Positions 47,049 through 57,566 of a stretch of 64,000 nucleotides of DNA are shown here, in pieces. Within the stretch, counting starts at the first letter, position 1, and every line of letters begins with the position of its first letter. The notes below the pieces were generated by a model, which had not been told where the DNA came from, did not search any database, and was given only the letters and a program-made list of their open reading frames with translations. The stretch lies in assembly GCF_030013595.1 (NCBI RefSeq), contig NZ_CP122768.1. One strand, written 5' to 3'. The translations under genes and the position numbers were made by a program. Source of the DNA: Escherichia coli (GTDB lineage Bacteria > Pseudomonadota > Gammaproteobacteria > Enterobacterales > Enterobacteriaceae).

Positions 47049-48740
47049 ATGAAAACGCTGCTGATTATTGACGCTAATCTCGGTCAGGCACGCGCCTATA
47101 TGGCGAAGACCCTGCTGGGCGCGGCGGCGCGAAAAGCAAAACTGGAAATCATCGACAATCCGAACGACGCTGAAATGGCGATTGTTCTCGGTGATTCCAT
47201 CCCGAACGACAGCGCGCTGAACGGTAAAAATGTCTGGCTGGGCGATATTTCCCGGGCAGTTGCGCACCCTGAGCTGTTCCTGAGTGAAGCCAAAGGCCAT
47301 GCGAAACCTTACACTGCGCCGGTCGCTGCGACAGCACCGGTTGCCGCCAGCGGTCCGAAACGCGTAGTTGCGGTGACTGCTTGCCCGACTGGCGTAGCAC
47401 ACACCTTTATGGCGGCTGAAGCCATTGAAACCGAAGCGAAAAAACGTGGCTGGTGGGTGAAAGTTGAAACCCGTGGTTCGGTTGGCGCGGGTAATGCAAT
47501 CACCCCTGAAGAAGTAGCCGCAGCGGATCTGGTGATTGTGGCGGCAGATATTGAAGTGGATCTGGCGAAATTTGCTGGTAAACCGATGTATCGCACCTCT
47601 ACCGGTCTGGCGCTGAAGAAAACCGCGCAGGAACTGGATAAAGCGGTTGCTGAAGCAACGCCGTATGAACCGGCGGGCAAAACTCAAACAGCGACCACTG
47701 AAGGTAAGAAAGAGAGTGCAGGCGCTTACCGTCACTTGCTGACGGGCGTTTCTTACATGCTGCCGATGGTCGTTGCAGGTGGTCTGTGTATCGCGCTTTC
47801 TTTTGCTTTTGGTATCGAAGCGTTTAAAGAGCCGGGTACGTTGGCAGCGGCGCTGATGCAGATTGGTGGTGGTTCAGCCTTTGCGCTGATGGTGCCGGTA
47901 CTGGCAGGTTATATTGCCTTCTCCATTGCCGATCGTCCGGGTCTCACGCCGGGTCTGATTGGCGGTATGCTGGCGGTCAGCACTGGTTCTGGCTTCATTG
48001 GCGGTATTATTGCGGGCTTCCTGGCTGGTTACATTGCGAAGTTAATCAGTACGCAATTGAAACTACCACAGAGTATGGAGGCGCTGAAACCGATCCTGAT
48101 CATTCCGCTAATTTCCAGTCTGGTGGTCGGTCTGGCGATGATCTACCTGATCGGTAAACCGGTTGCTGGCATTCTCGAAGGGTTGACTCACTGGCTGCAG
48201 ACCATGGGGACTGCGAATGCGGTTCTGCTGGGGGCGATCCTCGGTGGCATGATGTGTACTGACATGGGCGGTCCGGTAAACAAAGCAGCGTACGCGTTCG
48301 GTGTGGGTCTGCTGAGTACTCAAACCTATGGCCCGATGGCGGCGATTATGGCGGCAGGTATGGTGCCACCGCTGGCAATGGGCCTGGCAACAATGGTGGC
48401 GCGTCGCAAATTCGACAAAGCGCAGCAGGAAGGGGGCAAAGCCGCTCTGGTACTGGGACTGTGCTTTATTTCGGAAGGTGCAATTCCGTTTGCTGCCCGT
48501 GATCCGATGCGAGTGCTGCCGTGCTGTATCGTGGGTGGGGCGCTGACTGGCGCAATCTCAATGGCGATTGGTGCGAAACTGATGGCACCGCACGGTGGTC
48601 TGTTTGTTCTGCTGATCCCTGGCGCGATTACGCCGGTATTGGGTTACCTGGTAGCCATTATTGCCGGTACGCTGGTGGCGGGTTTGGCCTATGCCTTCCT
48701 GAAACGTCCGGAAGTGGACGCAGTTGCGAAAGCAGCGTAA
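47049..48740 (+). CDS. fruA: Fructose PTS EIIB'BC component FruA
   Basis: 563 aa, EIIB domains with CPTG cysteine, membrane EIIC domain. Confidence 0.9.
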   Translation: MKTLLIIDANLGQARAYMAKTLLGAAARKAKLEIIDNPNDAEMAIVLGDSIPNDSALNGKNVWLGDISRAVAHPELFLSEAKGHAKPYTAPVAATAPVAASGPKRVVAVTACPTGVAHTFMAAEAIETEAKKRGWWVKVETRGSVGAGNAITPEEVAAADLVIVAADIEVDLAKFAGKPMYRTSTGLALKKTAQELDKAVAEATPYEPAGKTQTATTEGKKESAGAYRHLLTGVSYMLPMVVAGGLCIALSFAFGIEAFKEPGTLAAALMQIGGGSAFALMVPVLAGYIAFSIADRPGLTPGLIGGMLAVSTGSGFIGGIIAGFLAGYIAKLISTQLKLPQSMEALKPILIIPLISSLVVGLAMIYLIGKPVAGILEGLTHWLQTMGTANAVLLGAILGGMMCTDMGGPVNKAAYAFGVGLLSTQTYGPMAAIMAAGMVPPLAMGLATMVARRKFDKAQQEGGKAALVLGLCFISEGAIPFAARDPMRVLPCCIVGGALTGAISMAIGAKLMAPHGGLFVLLIPGAITPVLGYLVAIIAGTLVAGLAYAFLKRPEVDAVAKAA

Positions 48741-48896
48741 TAAAAGGTGTGTTGCAGGGCAGAAATTTTCTGCCCTGCAACATTTGATGCGCGCAAAGAG
48801 AATGACCGGTTTGTGAATGTAATTTTATGAATTTAAATGGTTTTATCTTTTAGTAGAAACCTGAAACTTTCATCAAACACTAAGGTTATTTCCTCA

Positions 48897-48926
48897 AGGG
48901 CAGATTAATTTCTGCCCTTTTTTATT
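48897..48926 (+). terminator. Rho-independent terminator downstream of fruA
   Basis: AGGGCAGATTAATTTCTGCCCT hairpin followed by TTTTTATT; an additional palindrome at 48754-48778. Confidence 0.6.
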
Positions 48927-49163
48927 GTTCCTGTTCTGTGCATCCCGTCACAAATTCCCCGTTTTTATAATTCAGGCATTTAATCGCGTTTTGTGAGCCT
49001 GCTCAAATCTGCCCATTTTGCCTCTCTGGCGGTAATTTACTTTACGTAAAACATGCATACTATGAGCACATGTTTAAATATGAACACATGTTTAAACCGT
49101 CTTTGCAGTATCTATATTCTTGTGGATTGACAGGATTGGTAATTTTTTACCAGAGGACGTGCT

Positions 49164-50105
49164 ATGCGCGAAAAGGATTATGTCGTAATTATAGGTTCGG
49201 CGAATATTGATGTCGCCGGATATTCACATGAATCATTAAATTATGCGGATTCAAATCCAGGTAAAATAAAGTTTACGCCTGGTGGAGTCGGGCGCAATAT
49301 TGCACAAAACCTGGCGTTGCTGGGGAATAAAGCCTGGCTACTGAGCGCAGTAGGCAGTGATTTTTATGGTCAATCGTTGCTAACGCAAACCAATCAATCT
49401 GGTGTTTATGTCGATAAATGCCTGATTGTGCCGGGAGAAAATACGTCGAGCTATTTATCATTACTCGATAATACCGGTGAAATGCTGGTTGCTATAAATG
49501 ACATGAATATTAGCAACGCTATTACAGCTGAATATCTCGCACAGCACCGTGAATTTATTCAGAGGGCAAAGGTCATTGTCGCAGACTGTAATATCAGTGA
49601 AGAGGCACTGGCATGGATTCTGGATAATGCCGCCAATGTACCTGTATTTGTCGATCCGGTTTCGGCATGGAAATGTGTCAAAGTGCGCGACCGTCTAAAT
49701 CAGATCCACACCCTGAAGCCAAACCGCCTTGAAGCGGAAACCCTGAGTGGGATTGCTTTGTCAGGGCGTGAAGATGTGGCAAAAGTTGCTGCCTGGTTCC
49801 ATCAACATGGCCTGAACCGACTGGTATTGAGCATGGGCGGCGACGGCGTTTATTACAGTGATATCAGCGGTGAAAGTGGTTGGTCTGCGCCGATCAAAAC
49901 CAATGTCATTAATGTTACCGGAGCGGGCGATGCCATGATGGCTGGACTTGCTTCGTGTTGGGTAGACGGAATGCCGTTTGCCGAATCTGTTCGTTTCGCA
50001 CAGGGATGTTCGTCAATGGCGCTCTCCTGTGAATACACCAATAACCCCGATTTATCGATTGCCAACGTTATATCGTTAGTGGAGAACGCAGAATGTCTGA
50101 ATTAA
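49164..50105 (+). CDS. psuK: Pseudouridine kinase PsuK (YeiC)
   Basis: 313 aa, PfkB-family kinase. Confidence 0.85.
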   Translation: MREKDYVVIIGSANIDVAGYSHESLNYADSNPGKIKFTPGGVGRNIAQNLALLGNKAWLLSAVGSDFYGQSLLTQTNQSGVYVDKCLIVPGENTSSYLSLLDNTGEMLVAINDMNISNAITAEYLAQHREFIQRAKVIVADCNISEEALAWILDNAANVPVFVDPVSAWKCVKVRDRLNQIHTLKPNRLEAETLSGIALSGREDVAKVAAWFHQHGLNRLVLSMGGDGVYYSDISGESGWSAPIKTNVINVTGAGDAMMAGLASCWVDGMPFAESVRFAQGCSSMALSCEYTNNPDLSIANVISLVENAECLN

Positions 50106-51031
50106 AAATTTCCCCTGAATTATTACAAATTTCCCCGGAAGTGCAGGACGCTTTAAAAAACAAAAAACCGGTTGTGGCGCTGGAATCGACCATTATTTCT
50201 CACGGGATGCCGTTCCCACAAAATGCCCAGACCGCAATTGAAGTTGAAGAAACTATTCGTAAACAGGGCGCTGTACCTGCCACTATCGCCATTATTGGCG
50301 GCGTGATGAAAGTGGGTTTAAGCAAAGAAGAAATTGAATTGCTGGGTCGTGAAGGGCATAACGTGACCAAAGTTAGTCGTCGCGATTTACCTTTTGTTGT
50401 TGCCGCCGGAAAAAATGGCGCAACTACCGTTGCTTCAACGATGATTATTGCGGCGCTTGCCGGAATTAAAGTATTTGCCACTGGGGGAATTGGTGGTGTG
50501 CATCGCGGGGCGGAACATACCTTCGATATTTCTGCCGATTTGCAAGAACTGGCGCACACCAATGTCACCGTCGTTTGTGCCGGGGCGAAATCTATTCTCG
50601 ATTTAGGCTTAACTACCGAATATTTAGAAACTTTCGGTGTACCGCTAATTGGCTATCAGACCAAAGCGCTGCCTGCGTTTTTCTGCCGCACCAGCCCGTT
50701 TGAAGTCAGTATTCGCCTTGATAGTGCCACGGAAATCGCTCGTGCAATGGCGGTGAAATGGCAAAGCGGGCTGAACGGTGGCCTCGTGGTAGCGAACCCG
50801 ATCCCGGAACAGTTTGCTATGCCGGAACACACTATCAATGCGGCGATCGATCAGGCGGTAGCTGAAGCTGAAGCGCAGGGTGTTATTGGTAAAGAAAGTA
50901 CGCCATTCCTGCTGGCGCGCGTTGCTGAGCTGACCGGCGGTGACAGCCTGAAATCCAACATCCAGCTGGTGTTCAACAACGCCATTCTGGCGAGCGAAAT
51001 TGCCAAAGAATATCAGCGTCTCGCGGGTTAA
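50093..51031 (+). CDS. psuG: Pseudouridine-5'-phosphate glycosidase PsuG (YeiN)
   Basis: 312-aa ORF overlapping the psuK stop. Confidence 0.85.
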   Translation: MSELKISPELLQISPEVQDALKNKKPVVALESTIISHGMPFPQNAQTAIEVEETIRKQGAVPATIAIIGGVMKVGLSKEEIELLGREGHNVTKVSRRDLPFVVAAGKNGATTVASTMIIAALAGIKVFATGGIGGVHRGAEHTFDISADLQELAHTNVTVVCAGAKSILDLGLTTEYLETFGVPLIGYQTKALPAFFCRTSPFEVSIRLDSATEIARAMAVKWQSGLNGGLVVANPIPEQFAMPEHTINAAIDQAVAEAEAQGVIGKESTPFLLARVAELTGGDSLKSNIQLVFNNAILASEIAKEYQRLAG

Positions 51032-51124
51032 TTTCTGACGGGCAGAAAGCCGTCGCCCGTACTCATCAAGCATACCAAAACCTGGCGCTGACGCCGGGTT
51101 TACTGGCATGAAGGGAAAATCATT

Positions 51125-52375
51125 ATGGATATAATGAGAAGTGTTGTGGGGATGGTGGTGTTACTGGCAATAGCATTTCTGTTGTCAGTGAATAAAAAGG
51201 GCATCAGTTTGCGCACGGTTGGAGCCGCACTGCTGCTGCAAATCGCTATTGGTGGCATCATGCTCTACTTCCCACCGGGAAAATGGGCAGTAGAACAGGC
51301 GGCATTAGGCGTTCATAAAGTGATGTCTTACAGTGATGCCGGTAGTGCCTTTATTTTTGGTTCATTGGTCGGGCCGAAAATGGATGTCCTGTTTGATGGC
51401 GCGGGCTTTATCTTCGCCTTTCGCGTACTCCCGGCGATTATCTTCGTCACTGCGCTCATCAGCCTGCTGTACTACATTGGCGTGATGGGGCTGCTAATCC
51501 GCATTCTTGGCAGTATTTTTCAGAAAGCCCTCAACATCAGCAAAATCGAATCTTTTGTTGCGGTTACCACTATTTTCCTCGGGCAAAATGAGATCCCGGC
51601 GATCGTAAAACCGTTTATCGATCGCATGAATCGCAACGAGCTATTTACGGCAATTTGTAGCGGGATGGCGTCCATTGCCGGTTCGATGATGATTGGTTAT
51701 GCCGGAATGGGCGTACCAATTGACTACCTGTTAGCGGCATCGCTGATGGCGATCCCTGGTGGTATTTTGTTTGCACGTATTCTTAGCCCGGCAACCGAGC
51801 CTTCGCAGGTGACATTTGAAAATCTGTCGTTCAGCGAAACGCCGCCAAAAGGCTTTATCGAAGCGGCGGCGAGCGGTGCGATGACCGGGCTGAAAATCGC
51901 CGCTGGTGTGGCGACGGTGGTAATGGCGTTTGTCGCAATTATTGCGCTGATCAACGGCATTATCGGCGGAATTGGCGGCTGGTTTGGTTTCGCCAATGCC
52001 TCTCTGGAAAGTATTTTTGGCTATGTGCTGGCACCGCTGGCGTGGATTATGGGCGTGGACTGGAGTGATGCCAACCTTGCGGGTAGCCTGATTGGGCAGA
52101 AACTGGCGATTAACGAATTCGTCGCTTACCTGAGTTTCTCCCCATACCTGCAAACGGGCGGCACGCTGGAAGTGAAAACCATTGCGATTATCTCCTTTGC
52201 GCTTTGTGGTTTTGCTAACTTTGGTTCTATCGGTGTTGTCGTTGGCGCATTTTCGGCTATTTCGCCAAAACGCGCGCCGGAAATCGCCCAGCTTGGTTTA
52301 CGGGCGCTGGCAGCAGCAACGCTTTCCAACCTGATGAGCGCGACCATTGCCGGGTTCTTTATTGGTTTAGCTTGA
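51125..52375 (+). CDS. psuT: NupC-family nucleoside transporter PsuT (YeiM)
   Basis: 416-aa polytopic membrane protein, paralogous to the nupX product in this window. Confidence 0.85.
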   Translation: MDIMRSVVGMVVLLAIAFLLSVNKKGISLRTVGAALLLQIAIGGIMLYFPPGKWAVEQAALGVHKVMSYSDAGSAFIFGSLVGPKMDVLFDGAGFIFAFRVLPAIIFVTALISLLYYIGVMGLLIRILGSIFQKALNISKIESFVAVTTIFLGQNEIPAIVKPFIDRMNRNELFTAICSGMASIAGSMMIGYAGMGVPIDYLLAASLMAIPGGILFARILSPATEPSQVTFENLSFSETPPKGFIEAAASGAMTGLKIAAGVATVVMAFVAIIALINGIIGGIGGWFGFANASLESIFGYVLAPLAWIMGVDWSDANLAGSLIGQKLAINEFVAYLSFSPYLQTGGTLEVKTIAIISFALCGFANFGSIGVVVGAFSAISPKRAPEIAQLGLRALAAATLSNLMSATIAGFFIGLA

Positions 52376-52442
52376 GTTTCATTGCCGGATGTACGCCTTA
52401 TTAAGCGTTGCATCCGGCAATCGCGCTATTGCAGATTATTTT

Positions 52443-53102
52443 TTACTGCATCATCCCGGAGAATTTATTCTCCGGGTCCATCTCCAGCGCCAGTCCTGAC
52501 AACTGCTTTCTGTTTTTAATTAAATACCCTTTCTTACTTTTAATTAATAAACCGTCGTGAATGAGTTGAGCGATCACATATAGCAAGTGACGATAAGTAA
52601 CACCTAAATACTCTGCTGCCTGGGTATGTTTTTCGTGATAAAGATCACCTTCTTGTGAGAGTAATATAAAAGCTGCCAGGCGATTCACTAACGGAAATGA
52701 TTGATTCTGAGTTAAAGAAACAATATTGCGATAATTTTTATGGCTTAAACTAACGCAGAGTTTTCGTAAAAATAGTGTGTCGTTTAATAACAGCGGACGG
52801 TAATGTTTCATAGGGAGCGCAAGGCACCAACACTCTTCAATAGCCTGCACCGCACGCGGTTCATGGTCTTTATCTATTAACTCAATCTCACCAATAAAAC
52901 AGGGGGCGGCAAAGAAATCGATCAGCGACACGCGACCATTAGCAAGCGTGGCGTAAAGCCTGGCGCGGCCTCGCGTCAGGTAAAACAGCCAGGACGGCTG
53001 TTGCCCTTCCTGCACAATGTAGTCACGCGCTAAAAAATGAAACAGCCGCGTATCGGCTGAAACATCCGTTGAAAAGCAATCCTTAAACGCGGATTCACTC
53101 AT
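52443..53102 (-). CDS. yeiL: CRP/FNR-family transcriptional regulator YeiL
   Basis: 219 aa from [10 protein letters not shown]; cNMP-binding-like domain plus C-terminal HTH. Confidence 0.8.
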
Positions 53103-53270
53103 CAATTGCTGCTTAAGATCATTATTGTGGATTTCTTTCACGATGTTTATCCGCTATGAGATTTCTCATATTTAGCATACTTACGCTGTTGTTAAGATTC
53201 AATCATCGGCCCGGTCGAATTTTCTTTGCTGTAGAAAAAATAACGCAACTGGAAACAGAGGAAATAAACA

Positions 53271-54212
53271 ATGGAAAAGAGAAGAATTATTCTGGATTGT
53301 GATCCGGGTCATGATGATGCTATTGCAATGATGATGGCAGCGAAACATCCGGCAATAGATTTATTAGGCATCACCATTGTGGCGGGTAATCAAACCCTCG
53401 ATAAAACATTAATTAATGGCCTGAATGTTTGCCAGAAACTGGAGATTAATGTTCCGGTTTATGCGGGTATGCCACAGCCCATTATGCGTCAACAAATTGT
53501 TGCCGATAATATTCACGGTGAAACCGGACTGGATGGCCCGGTATTCGAGCCGCTAACCCGCCAGGCAGAAAACACTCATGCGGTGAAATATATCATCGAT
53601 ACCCTGATGGCAAGCGATGGCGATATCACTCTGGTGCCGGTTGGTCCGTTGTCAAACATCGCGGTGGCAATGCGCATGCAACCCGCAATCCTGCCCAAAA
53701 TCCGTGAAATTGTACTGATGGGCGGCGCTTATGGTACTGGCAACTTCACGCCATCTGCCGAGTTCAACATCTTTGCGGACCCGGAAGCGGCGCGAGTGGT
53801 GTTCACCTCCGGCGTTCCATTAGTGATGATGGGCCTCGATCTCACCAACCAGACCGTTTGCACCCCGGACGTGATTGCACGGATGGAAAGGGCAGGCGGC
53901 CCCGCCGGAGAGCTGTTCAGCGACATCATGAACTTCACTCTCAAAACGCAGTTCGAAAACTACGGCCTTGCTGGCGGCCCGGTGCATGACGCCACCTGCA
54001 TCGGTTATCTGATTAACCCTGATGGCATTAAAACCCAGGAGATGTACGTCGACGTGGACGTTAACAGTGGCCCTTGCTATGGGCGTACCGTCTGCGACGA
54101 GCTGGGCGTTCTTGGCAAGCCCGCCAATACCAAAGTCGGCATCACTATTGATACTGACTGGTTCTGGGGATTAGTCGAAGAGTGCGTGCGCGGCTACATC
54201 AAAACCCATTAA
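53271..54212 (+). CDS. rihB: Pyrimidine-specific ribonucleoside hydrolase RihB
   Basis: 313 aa, N-terminal DCDPGHDDA nucleoside hydrolase motif. Confidence 0.9.
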
Positions 54213-54311
54213 GTGTTGATAACAAGCCGGGTCAGTATCGCAAGATGCAGGCCCGGCTATTTCTGATGGGCAGAAAGCCGTCGCCCAAAATGACATGAAG
54301 AGATAATAACT

Positions 54312-55562
54312 ATGGATGTCATGAGAAGTGTTCTGGGAATGGTGGTATTGCTGGCAATTGCGTTTTTGCTGTCAGTAAACAAGAAGAAGATCAGCCTGCG
54401 TACCGTTGGCGCGGCGTTAGTGTTACAGGTCGTGATTGGCGGCATTATGCTTTGGTTACCGCCAGGGCGTTGGGTCGCTGAAAAAGTCGCTTTTGGCGTG
54501 CATAAAGTGATGGCGTACAGCGACGCGGGTAGCGCATTTATCTTTGGTTCTCTGGTCGGACCGAAAATGGACACCTTATTTGATGGCGCAGGATTTATCT
54601 TTGGTTTCAGGGTATTACCGGCAATTATCTTCGTTACAGCACTGGTGAGTATTCTCTACTACATCGGTGTGATGGGGATCTTAATTCGCATTCTCGGCGG
54701 TATATTCCAGAAAGCATTGAATATCAGCAAGATTGAGTCATTCGTCGCTGTCACTACCATTTTCCTCGGGCAAAACGAAATTCCGGCAATCGTCAAACCC
54801 TTTATCGATCGTCTGAATCGCAATGAATTATTTACGGCTATTTGTAGTGGCATGGCCTCGATTGCTGGTTCGACAATGATTGGTTACGCCGCACTGGGCG
54901 TGCCTGTGGAATATCTGCTAGCGGCATCGTTAATGGCGATCCCCGGCGGGATCTTGTTTGCCCGCCTGTTAAGCCCGGCTACCGAATCTTCGCAGGTTTC
55001 CTTTAATAACCTCTCTTTCACCGAAACACCGCCAAAAAGCATTATTGAAGCCGCCGCTACAGGGGCAATGACCGGGCTGAAAATCGCCGCAGGTGTAGCG
55101 ACAGTAGTGATGGCATTTGTCGCCATCATTGCGTTAATTAACGGTATTATCGGCGGCGTTGGCGGCTGGTTTGGTTTTGAACATGCCTCGCTGGAGTCCA
55201 TTTTAGGTTACCTGCTGGCCCCGCTGGCGTGGGTGATGGGGGTTGACTGGAGTGATGCGAATCTTGCCGGGAGTTTGATTGGACAGAAACTGGCGATTAA
55301 TGAATTTGTCGCTTACCTCAATTTCTCACCTTATCTGCAAACAGCTGGCACTCTGGATGCTAAAACCGTGGCGATTATTTCCTTCGCGTTGTGCGGTTTC
55401 GCTAACTTTGGTTCTATCGGGGTGGTGGTGGGGGCGTTTTCTGCGGTTGCGCCACACCGTGCGCCGGAAATCGCCCAGCTTGGTTTACGCGCGCTGGCGG
55501 CGGCGACACTTTCTAACCTGATGAGTGCCACCATTGCAGGATTCTTTATTGGCTTAGCGTAG
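54312..55562 (+). CDS. nupX: NupC-family nucleoside transporter NupX (YeiJ)
   Basis: 416-aa polytopic membrane protein. Confidence 0.85.
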   Translation: MDVMRSVLGMVVLLAIAFLLSVNKKKISLRTVGAALVLQVVIGGIMLWLPPGRWVAEKVAFGVHKVMAYSDAGSAFIFGSLVGPKMDTLFDGAGFIFGFRVLPAIIFVTALVSILYYIGVMGILIRILGGIFQKALNISKIESFVAVTTIFLGQNEIPAIVKPFIDRLNRNELFTAICSGMASIAGSTMIGYAALGVPVEYLLAASLMAIPGGILFARLLSPATESSQVSFNNLSFTETPPKSIIEAAATGAMTGLKIAAGVATVVMAFVAIIALINGIIGGVGGWFGFEHASLESILGYLLAPLAWVMGVDWSDANLAGSLIGQKLAINEFVAYLNFSPYLQTAGTLDAKTVAIISFALCGFANFGSIGVVVGAFSAVAPHRAPEIAQLGLRALAAATLSNLMSATIAGFFIGLA

Positions 55563-55617
55563 TGCGCGATTTATGAGCCGGATAAGACGCGGTCAAGCGT
55601 CGAATCCGGCAACATTG

Positions 55618-56706
55618 TTACACCATCGGCACTAATGAAAGCGCGTTATCGGCAGACAGGGTAGGGTTGTTTAAGCTGCCGCTGGCGCGTGAAATTGCCG
55701 CGCAGGCCATCGCAAAACGGGCGCTGTCACGGAAATTGTTTCCCTCCAGAAAGCTATATACCAGGCCCGCCATAAAACCATCGTCAGCACCAAAACTGTC
55801 TACTGTCGTATGCGCTGGCGCTGTCAGCAAAAATTGCTCTCCATTCTTTTCGCTGCAATAAACTGACTCATCGGGCAAATAAACAAACAGTTGCTGAACG
55901 CCTTGCTGATGCAACGCATTCACTGCGGCATTACGGTCAGCATCGCTGGTGATCGCCTGTCCCCATAAAATTTCCAGCTCCGGTAAAGTGGGTTTCAGGG
56001 TGTGAATATGCGCCAGCCAGTGTTTGATTTTGCCCGCTTTGAATTCTGAAACGGTATCGACAAACACCGGGATTTCATCAGCGAGGGTAAAGACCCACTC
56101 CAGCGCCTCGGCTGTCAGGTTGCAATCAGCAAGTACCACGCCCGCATGACGAAGTAAATCGCGCGACCCGTTCAGTAGTTGCGGTGTCAACTGATCCAGC
56201 AGATGGGTATCGTTAATCGCCAGCACGGTTTGATCATCTCGATTGGCAATTGCCAGATACGTCGATGTGCTTTGACCATGTAAACGAACGCAGCCGGAGA
56301 CATTCACGCCGGCGCGGCGCGTTTCTTCCAGGAGCATTTCGCCATAAAAGTCATCGCCAATCACTGAAAGCAAATGGACGTCGCGGCCTAACAGCGCCAG
56401 ATTGTGGGCGATATTGCGTCCCACGCCGCCCGCCGAGCAATGAATTGTACCGGGATGAGAAGCCGCTTGTGGGTAACGGATATCCGCCATCCCGCGAATA
56501 TCCATATTGATTGTCCCAACCACTACGCAGTATTCCTGCTCGGTGAGAATGTAACCTTTGCCTTTAATCCGGCCTTTGCGCATTAAATCCATAATATGCG
56601 CCGCAACGCGCGAACGGCTGATTTGCAGCATGTCCGCAATTTCGTTCTGCTGAATCAGCGGGTTACGCCGTAAAATTGCAAGGATCTCCTTTTCCCGGTT
56701 ATTCAT
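55618..56706 (-). CDS. yeiI: HTH-containing PfkB-family sugar kinase YeiI
   Basis: 362 aa, N-terminal HTH plus PfkB kinase domain. Confidence 0.85.
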   Translation of the reverse strand: MNNREKEILAILRRNPLIQQNEIADMLQISRSRVAAHIMDLMRKGRIKGKGYILTEQEYCVVVGTINMDIRGMADIRYPQAASHPGTIHCSAGGVGRNIAHNLALLGRDVHLLSVIGDDFYGEMLLEETRRAGVNVSGCVRLHGQSTSTYLAIANRDDQTVLAINDTHLLDQLTPQLLNGSRDLLRHAGVVLADCNLTAEALEWVFTLADEIPVFVDTVSEFKAGKIKHWLAHIHTLKPTLPELEILWGQAITSDADRNAAVNALHQQGVQQLFVYLPDESVYCSEKNGEQFLLTAPAHTTVDSFGADDGFMAGLVYSFLEGNNFRDSARFAMACAAISRASGSLNNPTLSADNALSLVPMV

Positions 56707-56708
56707 CT

Positions 56709-57566
56709 TCAGGCTACCGCTTTTTCAGTTTGTTGCGCTTTCAGCCAGGCGATCTCTTCTGCCCAGATATCCGGGTTGATGGTTTCAAGGATCAGCGGAA
56801 TGCCGTCGAAGCGGTCGTCCTGCATGATCCAGCGGAACGCATCATGACCGATATTGCCTTCACCGAGGCTATGATGGCGGTCAACGCGGCTGCCAAAGGT
56901 GCTTTTCGCATCGTTAAGGTGCATCCCGCGCAGATACTTAAAGCCGACAATACGGGCAAAATCCGCGAACGTTTTCTCGCATTCGGCTGGAGTACGCAAA
57001 TCATACCCGGCAGCGAAAGCATGGCAGGTATCAATGCAGACGCCGACGCGGGATTTATCTTCCACGCCGTCGATAATCGCCGCGAGATGTTCGAATTTAA
57101 ACCCTAAGTTACTGCCCTGACCGGCGGTGTTTTCAATCACCGCGGTTACACCTTGAGTTTTATCCAGCGCAATGTTGATGGATTCGGCAATACGCGCAAG
57201 GCAATCCTCTTCTGAAATCTGCATCAGATGGCTGCCAGGGTGGAAGTTGAGCAAAGAAAGCCCCAGCTGTTCGCAACGCTGCATTTCATCTATAAACGCA
57301 TCGCGCGATTTTTCCAGAGCTTCAGCGACCGGATGTCCGAGGTTAATCAGATAACTGTCGTGGGGAAGAATTTGCGCCGATGTGTAGTGATATTTTTCAC
57401 AGGCGGCTTTGAATTCATCGATGGTTTGCGTCGTGAGCGGTGCGGCACGCCACTGACGTTGGTTTTTGGTGAACAAGGCAAACGCGGTTGCGTCGATTTC
57501 GGCGGCGCGAATTGCGGCATTTGCCAGACCGCCAGCAGCACTAACGTGCGCTCCAATGTATTTCAT
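56709..57566 (-). CDS. nfo: Endonuclease IV
   Basis: 285 aa, AP endonuclease family 2 (xylose-isomerase-like TIM barrel). Confidence 0.9.

Follow-up and report, generated by a model that had tools for sequence, protein, structure and literature searches.

A conserved RNA hairpin in the leaders of the paralogous transporter genes psuT and nupX of Enterobacteriaceae

Two transporter leaders with a common element

Here, we explored a non-coding element that precedes two paralogous transporter genes, psuT and nupX, in a 64,000-nucleotide stretch of the Escherichia coli contig NZ_CP122768.1 (assembly GCF_030013595.1), which we refer to throughout as the window, and we report that the element contains a conserved RNA hairpin, denoted HP1. 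The gene order at this locus is fruBKA-psuK-psuG-psuT-yeiL-rihB-nupX-yeiI, with yeiL and yeiI on the minus strand and the names taken from annotated E. coli genomes. In the list of open reading frames (ORFs), psuK occupies positions 49164-50105, psuG 50093-51031, psuT 51125-52375, rihB 53271-54212 and nupX 54312-55562, all on the plus strand, and yeiL occupies 52443-53141 on the minus strand. PsuT and NupX are little-characterised transporters of the CNT family; NupX carries uridine and cytidine weakly, and uptake of uridine, cytidine, xanthosine or gemcitabine by PsuT was not detected (PMC11241209). The two proteins are 88% identical and their genes 78.7% identical, with only 52% identity at third codon positions and 45% at four-fold degenerate sites, so that, at silent sites, the split between them is old. 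Our literature search found no description of the hairpin element.

The 28-mer ATTTCTGAYGGGCAGAAAGCCGTCGCCC has 2 exact matches in the window, at 51031-51058 and 54259-54286, both on the plus strand, against an expected count of 0 (100 shuffles of the window). The two copies are identical at 27 of 28 bases, the sole difference being C51039 versus T54267. One lies in the gap between psuG and psuT, where it begins on the final base of the psuG stop codon and ends 66 nucleotides before the ATG at 51125, and the other in the gap between rihB and nupX, where it is preceded by a strong hairpin that follows rihB and ends 25 nucleotides before the ATG at 54312. An earlier note on this DNA had rightly placed the motif once before each of these NupC-family paralogs, albeit with coordinates (51034-51060 and 54262-54288) that start 3 nucleotides and end 2 nucleotides too high; given gaps of 66 and 25 nucleotides, its description of the motif as lying immediately upstream of the genes does not hold. 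In a pairwise alignment, the homology of the two leaders begins at ATTTCTGA, the upstream psuG and rihB sequences being unrelated; 3′ of the motif, 41 nucleotides of the psuT leader are missing in nupX, and homology resumes at CATGAAGRGA...ATGGAT. The start regions (CATGAAGRGAWAAT..ATGGATRTMATGAGAAGTGTT) are indeed alike, as the note had also reported, but this likeness consists mostly of the Shine-Dalgarno sequence plus codons for M-D-I/V-M-R-S-V. In BLAST searches with a 37-nucleotide query, the motif was found in 5,424 of 5,426 E. coli genomes, at a median of 2 and a maximum of 3 places per genome, and is therefore locus-specific rather than a dispersed repeat.

A conserved helix in the shared element

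Both copies fold into the same small hairpin. In the psuT leader (plus strand, 51038-51060), HP1 reads A-CGGGC-AGAAAGCCGTC-GCCCG-T, with a six-pair stem (51038-51043 with 51055-51060) closing an 11-nucleotide loop; in the nupX leader (plus strand, 54267-54287), it reads TGGGC-AGAAAGCCGTC-GCCCA, with U-A where the psuT copy has its outermost C-G pair. Folding, pair counts and our covariance model all recover both copies, the last of these with 44 bits (E ~1e-11) for psuT and 41.2 bits (E ~9e-11) for nupX. When folded as a single sequence, the psuT copy adopts A-CGGGC-A-GA(AAGCCG)UC-GCCCG-U, with a minimum free energy of -10.4 to -11.1 kcal/mol and a z-score of -2.0; the corresponding values for the nupX copy are -8.3 kcal/mol and -1.3. 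Across the leaders, the conserved fold is A-YGGGC, an 11-nucleotide loop of the form AG..GCNGUY, and GCCCR-U.

Pairs were counted on an ungapped alignment of 22 distinct leaders, in which columns 10-15 form the helix with columns 27-32. Over these leaders, 94.7% of the cells of the six-pair helix are paired, slid registers all remain at or below 52%, none of 500 shuffles matches the helix on either the percentage paired or the covariation score, and RNAalifold predicts the same five inner pairs. Pair 0 is A-U in 12 leaders, G-C in 3 and G·U in 1; pair 1 is C-G in 14, U-A in 5 and U·G in 2; pair 2 is G-C in 20 and A-U in 2; and pair 5 is C-G in 20 and U·G in 2. Thus, 3 of the 6 pairs (0, 1 and 2) have changed on both sides and wobbles occur at pairs 0, 1 and 5, alongside one C·A and one A·C cell, each of which would be a wobble on the opposite strand. 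The psuT leaders of B2 E. coli (EC958) and of E. albertii carry the allele GGUGGGC..GCCCGU, the two wobbles of which are A·C mismatches on the other strand, and a plasmid-borne copy of psuKGT carries the intermediate allele GGCGGGC. These wobble alleles suggest, so far as sequence comparison can tell, that the fold is maintained in the sense RNA. Within the loop, positions 6, 7, 11, 12, 14, 15 and 16 (A6, G7, G11, C12, G14, U15 and Y16) are 73-100% conserved, and positions 8-10 and 13 are free.

The pair counts thus support the earlier note's proposal of an RNA structure, although by way of another helix than the one it had drawn. That helix, GACGG-loop-CCGTC, can form in both E. coli copies, one of its pairs being G·U in nupX; over the 22 leaders, however, 15 break its central pair and 437 of 500 shuffles equal it; the conserved helix, YGGGC/GCCCR, shares only some bases with it.

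To place HP1 in a broader context, loci were gathered by a protein-anchored scan of one genome per species, supplemented with contigs encoding named homologues, and gene content was established by tblastn. HP1 is present in the psuT and/or nupX leaders of Escherichia, Citrobacter, Kluyvera, Klebsiella, Leclercia, Buttiauxella, Salmonella, Superficieibacter, Dryocola and Entomohabitans, so that the motif is by no means confined to the window strain, whereas such confinement is what the earlier note would have counted against itself. A 21-nucleotide core, YRGGY-N11-GCCYR, occurs in 23 of 24 leaders, 45-88 nucleotides upstream of the start codon. Averaged over the 224 pairs of lineages whose four-fold sites are less than 0.6 identical, the core reaches an identity of 0.74, compared with 0.46 for the four-fold sites themselves and 0.35 for 18 flanking bases; for E. 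coli psuT versus nupX, the respective values are 0.90, 0.45 and 0.56. Core identity between the psuT leaders of E. coli and Citrobacter, 0.90-0.95, is at least as high as that between the two E. coli paralogs. Given that core identity is well above that of four-fold sites and flanks, the core, judged from these alignments, is under purifying selection in no fewer than nine enterobacterial genera. The notion of a non-coding element that both leaders have kept across an old duplication is accordingly upheld, the element being retained far above four-fold sites, and HP1 would have been inherited with the transporter gene from before the split of psuT and nupX. The identity of 27 of 28 bases nonetheless overstates the depth of sequence conservation, because in Kluyvera and in a Leclercia-like genome the genome's own psuT and nupX hairpins differ at many loop positions. 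With a helix above its controls and with purifying selection, HP1 has the features of a conserved cis-acting RNA structure.

The gene content of these genomes varies. Only psuKGT-yeiI is found in Citrobacter and E. albertii, only yeiL-rihB-nupX in Leclercia, Buttiauxella, Salmonella, K. spallanzanii, Dryocola and Superficieibacter, and both modules, as in E. coli, in Kluyvera, Entomohabitans and one Leclercia-like genome. The presence of one module does not depend on that of the other, yeiL-rihB-nupX behaving like a movable three-gene cassette with neighbourhoods that include fruA/nfo, efp, mipA and a melibiase gene. Copies of psuK-psuG-psuT also ride large conjugative plasmids, namely, E. coli pCP53-mcr, where they adjoin an ISVsa5 transposase, and a 416-kb plasmid of Salmonella Macclesfield. 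Conversely, nupX is decaying in some E. coli: the strain nearest to the window has a frameshift in nupX and an internal stop in yeiL, and in EC958 and an O170:H18 strain nupX is gone except for the leader and about the first 66 nucleotides.

A hairpin persists at the HP1 position even where the sequence has been replaced. In Leclercia nupX, the loop has been exchanged (AAUCCCGGAUU) and now forms a perfect stem of 11 base pairs (-16 to -17 kcal/mol). HP1 has given way to an unrelated 13-base-pair hairpin in Entomohabitans psuT, and in Serratia and Hafnia the leaders of the more distant psuT-like genes (73% protein identity) contain, at that position, long hairpins with energies of -27 to -34 kcal/mol. 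Beyond the two copies described, our covariance model detected no other, either in the window or upstream of 74 NupC-family loci that are more distant. A metagenome scan with GGGCAGNNNGCGGTCGCCC, the non-E. coli form, returned at least 120 stretches; those listed lie in GC-rich contigs (most with 0.54-0.77 G+C, one with 0.49) that lack a psuT homologue and are chance matches, with no enterobacterial match among them.

Other features of the leaders and the neighbouring sequence

The 5′ flank of the psuT copy, ATTTCTG (plus strand, 51031-51037), in which A51031 is the last base of the psuG TAA and at which homology with nupX starts, is AU-rich and predicted to be single-stranded; it is partly kept in other genera as GGTTAAYNTCTGA or YCTSA. 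Downstream of HP1 lies a C/A-rich, G-poor linker, ACTCATCAAGCATACC (plus strand, 51061-51076), which is kept as ATCARRCATACCRAAA in psuT and some nupX leaders and deleted in E. coli nupX. It is followed by a second predicted hairpin, HP2, AAAACCTGGCG-CTGA-CGCCGGGTTT (plus strand, 51077-51101; -15.6 kcal/mol), which, with an A-tract before it, a GC stem and a short UUU(U) tail, resembles a weak terminator and contains a U·G pair that is a C·A mismatch on the other strand. HP2 is kept in psuT leaders, almost without covariation. In most nupX leaders, though not in that of K. spallanzanii, a deletion between CTGGC direct repeats has removed it, as it has from the psuT leader of the Salmonella Macclesfield plasmid, HP1 remaining in place in these leaders. 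The psuT start region (plus strand, 51110-51136) comprises the Shine-Dalgarno sequence GAAGGGA (51110-51116) and a weak predicted hairpin, CATTAT-GGAT-ATAATG (51121-51136; -3.9 kcal/mol), which pairs the first ATG (51125) with the ATG of the fourth codon, includes the rare Ile codon ATA, and is conserved without covariation.

In the nupX leader, the hairpin directly after rihB, HP0, AAGCCGGGTCAGTATCGCAAGATGCAGGCCCGGCT (plus strand, 54224-54258), is much more stable by prediction (-25.1 kcal/mol). Its U-rich tail (UAUUUCU), which coincides with the ATTTCT of the motif, makes it terminator-like, and its sequence differs in every genus, a hairpin being always present at that position. The 5′ flank of the nupX copy, ATTTCTGA, extends over 54259-54266 (plus strand), and the start region (plus strand, 54290-54322) folds by pairing ATGACAT (54290-54296) with ATGTCAT (54316-54322), which encloses the Shine-Dalgarno sequence and the ATG at 54312 (-6.9 kcal/mol). 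The nupX leader of the window strain is 12 nucleotides shorter than that of another E. coli owing to an indel just 3′ of HP1. The start regions of both genes carry GGA at the Shine-Dalgarno sequence and AUGGAU, which by analogy might be likened to CsrA sites. Across the leaders, the distance from HP1 to the ATG ranges from 25 to 66 nucleotides. HP1 is the one element retained in nearly all leaders while HP0 and HP2 vary or vanish; this, together with the variable distance to the ATG, argues against a mechanism that needs exact spacing from the start codon.

Searches for known elements placed HP1 in none of the obvious classes. Over 48000-57000, an Rfam 15 cmscan with E ≤10 matched the element only to isrJ, at 18.9 bits versus a gathering threshold of 37 and with E = 8.5, that is, at chance level. 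Weak matches to naRNA4, which derives from repetitive extragenic palindromic (REP) sequences, fall away from HP1, at 52383-52450 and 55576-55624, and a median of two places per E. coli genome sets the motif apart from REP sequences and the bacterial interspersed mosaic elements (BIMEs). HP1 is followed by GUACUCAU in psuT and AAAUGACA in nupX, without the U-tract of an intrinsic terminator, and a consensus scan found no terminator-like site at HP1, HP2 or HP0. The same scan revealed no promoter-like site on the plus strand near either copy; a candidate promoter just 5′ of HP1, with GTTAAT in psuT, is weak and not conserved.

Coding potential was assessed because the variable loop positions show a 3-nucleotide periodicity. 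A small ORF on the sense strand is interrupted by an in-frame TAA in Buttiauxella, K. spallanzanii and Leclercia. On the antisense strand, a frame encoding R/W-A-T-A-x-C-P, with third positions on the variable bases 10, 13 and 16, meets stops within 1-4 upstream codons in 10 of 23 leaders; about 7 others have one at a greater distance upstream, and no conserved start is apparent. Both frames were rejected. By eye, the kissing or pseudoknot contacts open to the HP1 loop, whether with HP2, with the linker or with the start region, involve 3-4 base pairs at most and no covariation. The half-site GGGCAGAAA, shared with two hairpins after fruA (48757 and 48898), was treated as a chance match because the window contains GGCAGAAA 19 times, mostly within coding sequence. 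Of these post-fruA hairpins, that at 48750-48782 is a perfect 16-base-pair palindrome (TGTTGCAGGGCAGAAA/TTTCTGCCCTGCAACA), and that at 48896-48926, 140 nucleotides later, is a classical terminator with a T-run.

The regions upstream of the operons contain sites of other kinds. Two CRP-type sites, each with 1 mismatch, lie upstream of psuK (TGTGCATCCCGTCACA at 48937 and TGTGAGCCTGCTCAAA at 48992). By contrast, the earlier suggestion of CRP or CytR binding in the leaders found no counterpart there, TGTGA-N6-TCACA with up to 3 mismatches being absent from 51000-51125 and 54212-54312. The presence of CRP-type sites at the operon promoters and their absence from the leaders fit a transcript that begins at these promoters and contains HP1 internally. 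psuK is also preceded by a direct repeat in tandem, GAGCACATGTTTAAA-TAT-GAACACATGTTTAAA (49064-49096), which occurs nowhere else in the window and is, to judge from its sequence, probably an operator; the fruA-psuK intergenic region (psuK region) has been reported as a repeated target of adaptation in the mouse gut (PMC9509342). The palindrome TATGAGATTTCTCATA (53155-53170), located between the divergently oriented yeiL and rihB, resembles sites of the CRP/FNR family and is a candidate YeiL operator. YeiI (55618-56706, minus strand), which combines a winged-helix DNA-binding domain with a PfkB kinase about 40% identical to PsuK, always occurs with psuKGT and is a candidate pseudouridine-responsive regulator of the psu operon.

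Possible roles of HP1 and its relation to known systems

We infer that HP1 most likely acts as RNA, in the processing or stability of the message or as a binding site for a protein. Specifically, we tentatively favour, as plausible rather than probable, the view that HP1 is a sense-strand stem-loop that marks the 5′ edge of the transporter leader and acts in cis, post-transcriptionally, as punctuation of the polycistronic mRNA. Under this scenario, cleavage would occur in the AU-rich single-stranded stretch 5′ of HP1, a plausible point of entry for an endonuclease, either after the psuG stop codon or between HP0 and HP1. The transporter mRNA would then be headed by HP1 as a protective hairpin and the mRNA of the upstream enzyme would terminate in a structured 3′ end, so that the level of the transporter could be set apart from that of the enzyme, with a ribonuclease or an RNA-binding regulator reading HP1. 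Conservation of the 3′ half of the loop, GCNGUY, suggests that it is a protein that reads HP1 and that bare structure is not what counts. What the comparisons themselves reveal is the sequence of HP1, its restriction to the two leaders, purifying selection, and a conserved helix with changes on both sides of its pairs.

Several observations weigh against this view. In the Term-seq and Rho tables for MG1655, the only entry at these loci is a Rho region just downstream of psuT, antisense to yeiL (PMC7815308); neither 3′ ends nor Rho regions are listed in either gap, the operons being silent in the LB and M63 glucose media used (PMC7815308). With only 5-6 base pairs, -8 to -12 kcal/mol and z-scores of -1.3 to -2.0, the stem would be a weak barrier to exonucleases; in nupX, a plain barrier would be redundant because the much stronger HP0 already lies upstream, and a purely structural role would not call for conserved bases in the loop. 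Outside Escherichia and Citrobacter, the AU-rich 5′ flank is not well kept. The case for the sense-strand fold itself has its own weak points: wobbles outnumber A·C cells by only about 5-8 to 2, the percentage paired is inflated because the pattern used for extraction restricted the outer stem positions to Y/R, and the covariation stems from few independent events, several of the U-A cases possibly tracing to a single event in the nupX lineage.

Because the conserved loop and the redundancy with HP0 argue that HP1 is read specifically, the main rival is a docking site for a trans-acting RNA-binding protein or small RNA encoded elsewhere, which would tune the translation or decay of both transporter mRNAs to some signal and to which HP1 would present the loop AG...GCNGUY. 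The interleaving of the kept loop positions with the free ones would be expected of such a site, as would the retention of HP1 while the generic HP0 and HP2 vary or go, and the asymmetry of the conservation suits recognition of RNA or by a monomer. No candidate factor has emerged, however: the loop contains no GGA for CsrA and matches neither lambda boxB nor the ribonucleic antiterminator (RAT) sequence, Leclercia nupX has kept the hairpin with a wholly different loop, and Entomohabitans psuT has swapped out HP1 entirely. That the factor would be encoded elsewhere, and by neither module, accords with gene content: genomes with psuT only lack yeiL, those with nupX only lack yeiI, and HP1 is present in both. 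We regard such docking as possible, if somewhat unlikely. A more specific proposal, that HP1 is the recognition hairpin of a regulator (an RNA-binding protein, a small RNA or a tiny ligand-responsive fold) which couples expression of the PsuT/NupX clade to nucleoside availability, and would thus be a new post-transcriptional element for pyrimidine or pseudouridine salvage in Enterobacteriaceae, appears quite unlikely. Less likely again is that HP1 serves as an RNA polymerase pause hairpin or as part of an attenuator that, with HP2 in psuT or HP0 in nupX, tunes read-through. The GC stem, A-tract and UUU(U) tail of HP2 and the UAUUUCU following HP0 would suit attenuation, and the psuT HP1 starts 7-12 nucleotides past the psuG stop codon, so that a terminating ribosome would touch it. 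Furthermore, in E. coli a UUUCUG/CAGAAA pairing (TTTCTG/CAGAAA in the DNA) competes with HP1; this helix, however, is good only in Escherichia and is paired in just 57.6% of cells across genera. No conserved alternative pairing of HP1 with HP2 or HP0 was found (4 base pairs only, without covariation), most nupX leaders have retained HP1 without HP2, and the scan flagged no terminator at any of the three hairpins.

An improbable reading places the function in DNA, with CGGGC-N11-GCCCG as the double-stranded operator of a dimeric transcription factor at an internal transporter promoter. The element is a 21-base-pair dyad, and a peak of RpoS-RNA polymerase in a SELEX-chip study (SELEX, systematic evolution of ligands by exponential enrichment) lies inside psuG, at ~50810, about 315 nucleotides upstream of psuT by coordinate conversion (PMC5493296), which hints at an internal stationary-phase psuT promoter. 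The consensus scan found no promoter-like site at this peak or near HP1, though, and there is no CRP-like site in the leaders; the conservation is asymmetric, the 3′ half GCNGTY having no mirrored partner; wobble-type changes maintain pairing only in the sense RNA; the two copies in one genome differ by a compensatory change (C-G versus T-A) at the outer half-site, which would be of no benefit to a dimeric factor; and no regulator gene co-occurs with both leaders. Two further explanations are highly improbable. A riboswitch that senses pseudouridine, uridine or another pyrimidine nucleoside would be well placed upstream of nucleoside transporters, could draw on the conserved hairpin and loop bases, the terminator-like HP2 and the start-codon hairpin, and, lacking an Rfam match, would be new. 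Yet HP1 alone, at 21-23 nucleotides, is below the size of any known aptamer, E. coli nupX can dispense with the linker and HP2, the loop in Leclercia nupX and the entire hairpin in Entomohabitans psuT have been replaced, and no conserved pseudoknot partner was found. Equally hard to credit is a functionless relic of the duplication, kept alike by short gene conversion between copies 3.2 kb apart. True, the E. coli copies share a loop, AGAAAGCCGTC, and a flank, ATTTCTGA, that are not found exactly in other genera, and the psuT leaders of E. albertii and B2 E. coli have at pair 1 the T of the nupX type. Gene conversion does not suffice as an explanation, however, because the core is also conserved in genomes that have only one of the genes (Citrobacter, Leclercia, Salmonella and Buttiauxella). 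Moreover, the E. coli psuT and nupX cores, with identity of 0.90, are no closer than those of E. coli and Citrobacter psuT, the first 100 coding nucleotides of the paralogs are only 79% identical, and core conservation far above silent sites and flanks largely refutes a relic.

The psuKGT and rihB-nupX operons are poorly understood and largely silent nucleoside-salvage operons, and a conserved RNA element before both transporter cistrons offers a handle on the expression of the transporter versus that of the enzymes. The natural variants, C-G versus U-A and the B2 wobble alleles, provide a clean pair for mutational tests. If HP1 binds a factor, it would define a small post-transcriptional regulon; if it is only a decay boundary, it would be a further example of a familiar device.

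Intercistronic stem-loops are known to set differential mRNA stability within operons, as do the REP hairpins between malE and malF and the processing site between papB and papA. Like these, HP1 is GC-rich, lacks a U-tract, is located on the sense strand, and occupies an untranslated gap between a gene for a soluble protein and one for a membrane transporter, where a hairpin stays in position despite replacement of the sequence. Unlike REP sequences, HP1 is present in two copies per genome, has no REP-type Rfam match, and combines a stem of 5-6 base pairs with the retention of specific loop bases. Similarly to the 5′ stabilising hairpins of the ompA type, it is a small stable hairpin with which the leader of an mRNA for a membrane protein begins, an AU-rich single-stranded stretch lies before it, and its distance to the ATG is uncritical; however, with no promoter-like site upstream, HP1 would come to lie at a 5′ end only after the putative processing.

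Other short leader elements resemble HP1 in part. With lambda boxB/N and RAT/BglG-SacY, it has in common a short leader hairpin with conserved loop bases near terminator-like hairpins. The E. coli sub-hairpin GGC-AGAAA-GCC is reminiscent of the boxB pentaloop but is specific to E. coli, since position 13 is G in most other genera, and, in contrast to RAT, HP1 overlaps no terminator and is linked to no gene for a cognate protein. The preQ1-I riboswitch likewise consists of a hairpin of ~5 base pairs with conserved loop bases upstream of a transporter gene, whereas HP1 has neither an Rfam match nor a conserved A-rich tail or pseudoknot, and its loop is not invariant. The loop and 3′ arm of HP1, GCGGTCGCCCG, match the RfaH ops element (GGCGGTAGnnTG) at 7-8 of 12 positions, including G5, T6 and G8, very likely by chance: in the E. 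coli copies, which have GCCGTC, G4 is lost and A7 and T11 are unmatched, and the operons are not of the RfaH type. Thus, HP1 is a real, conserved and previously undescribed RNA hairpin, the function of which we infer, and it is of a familiar kind.

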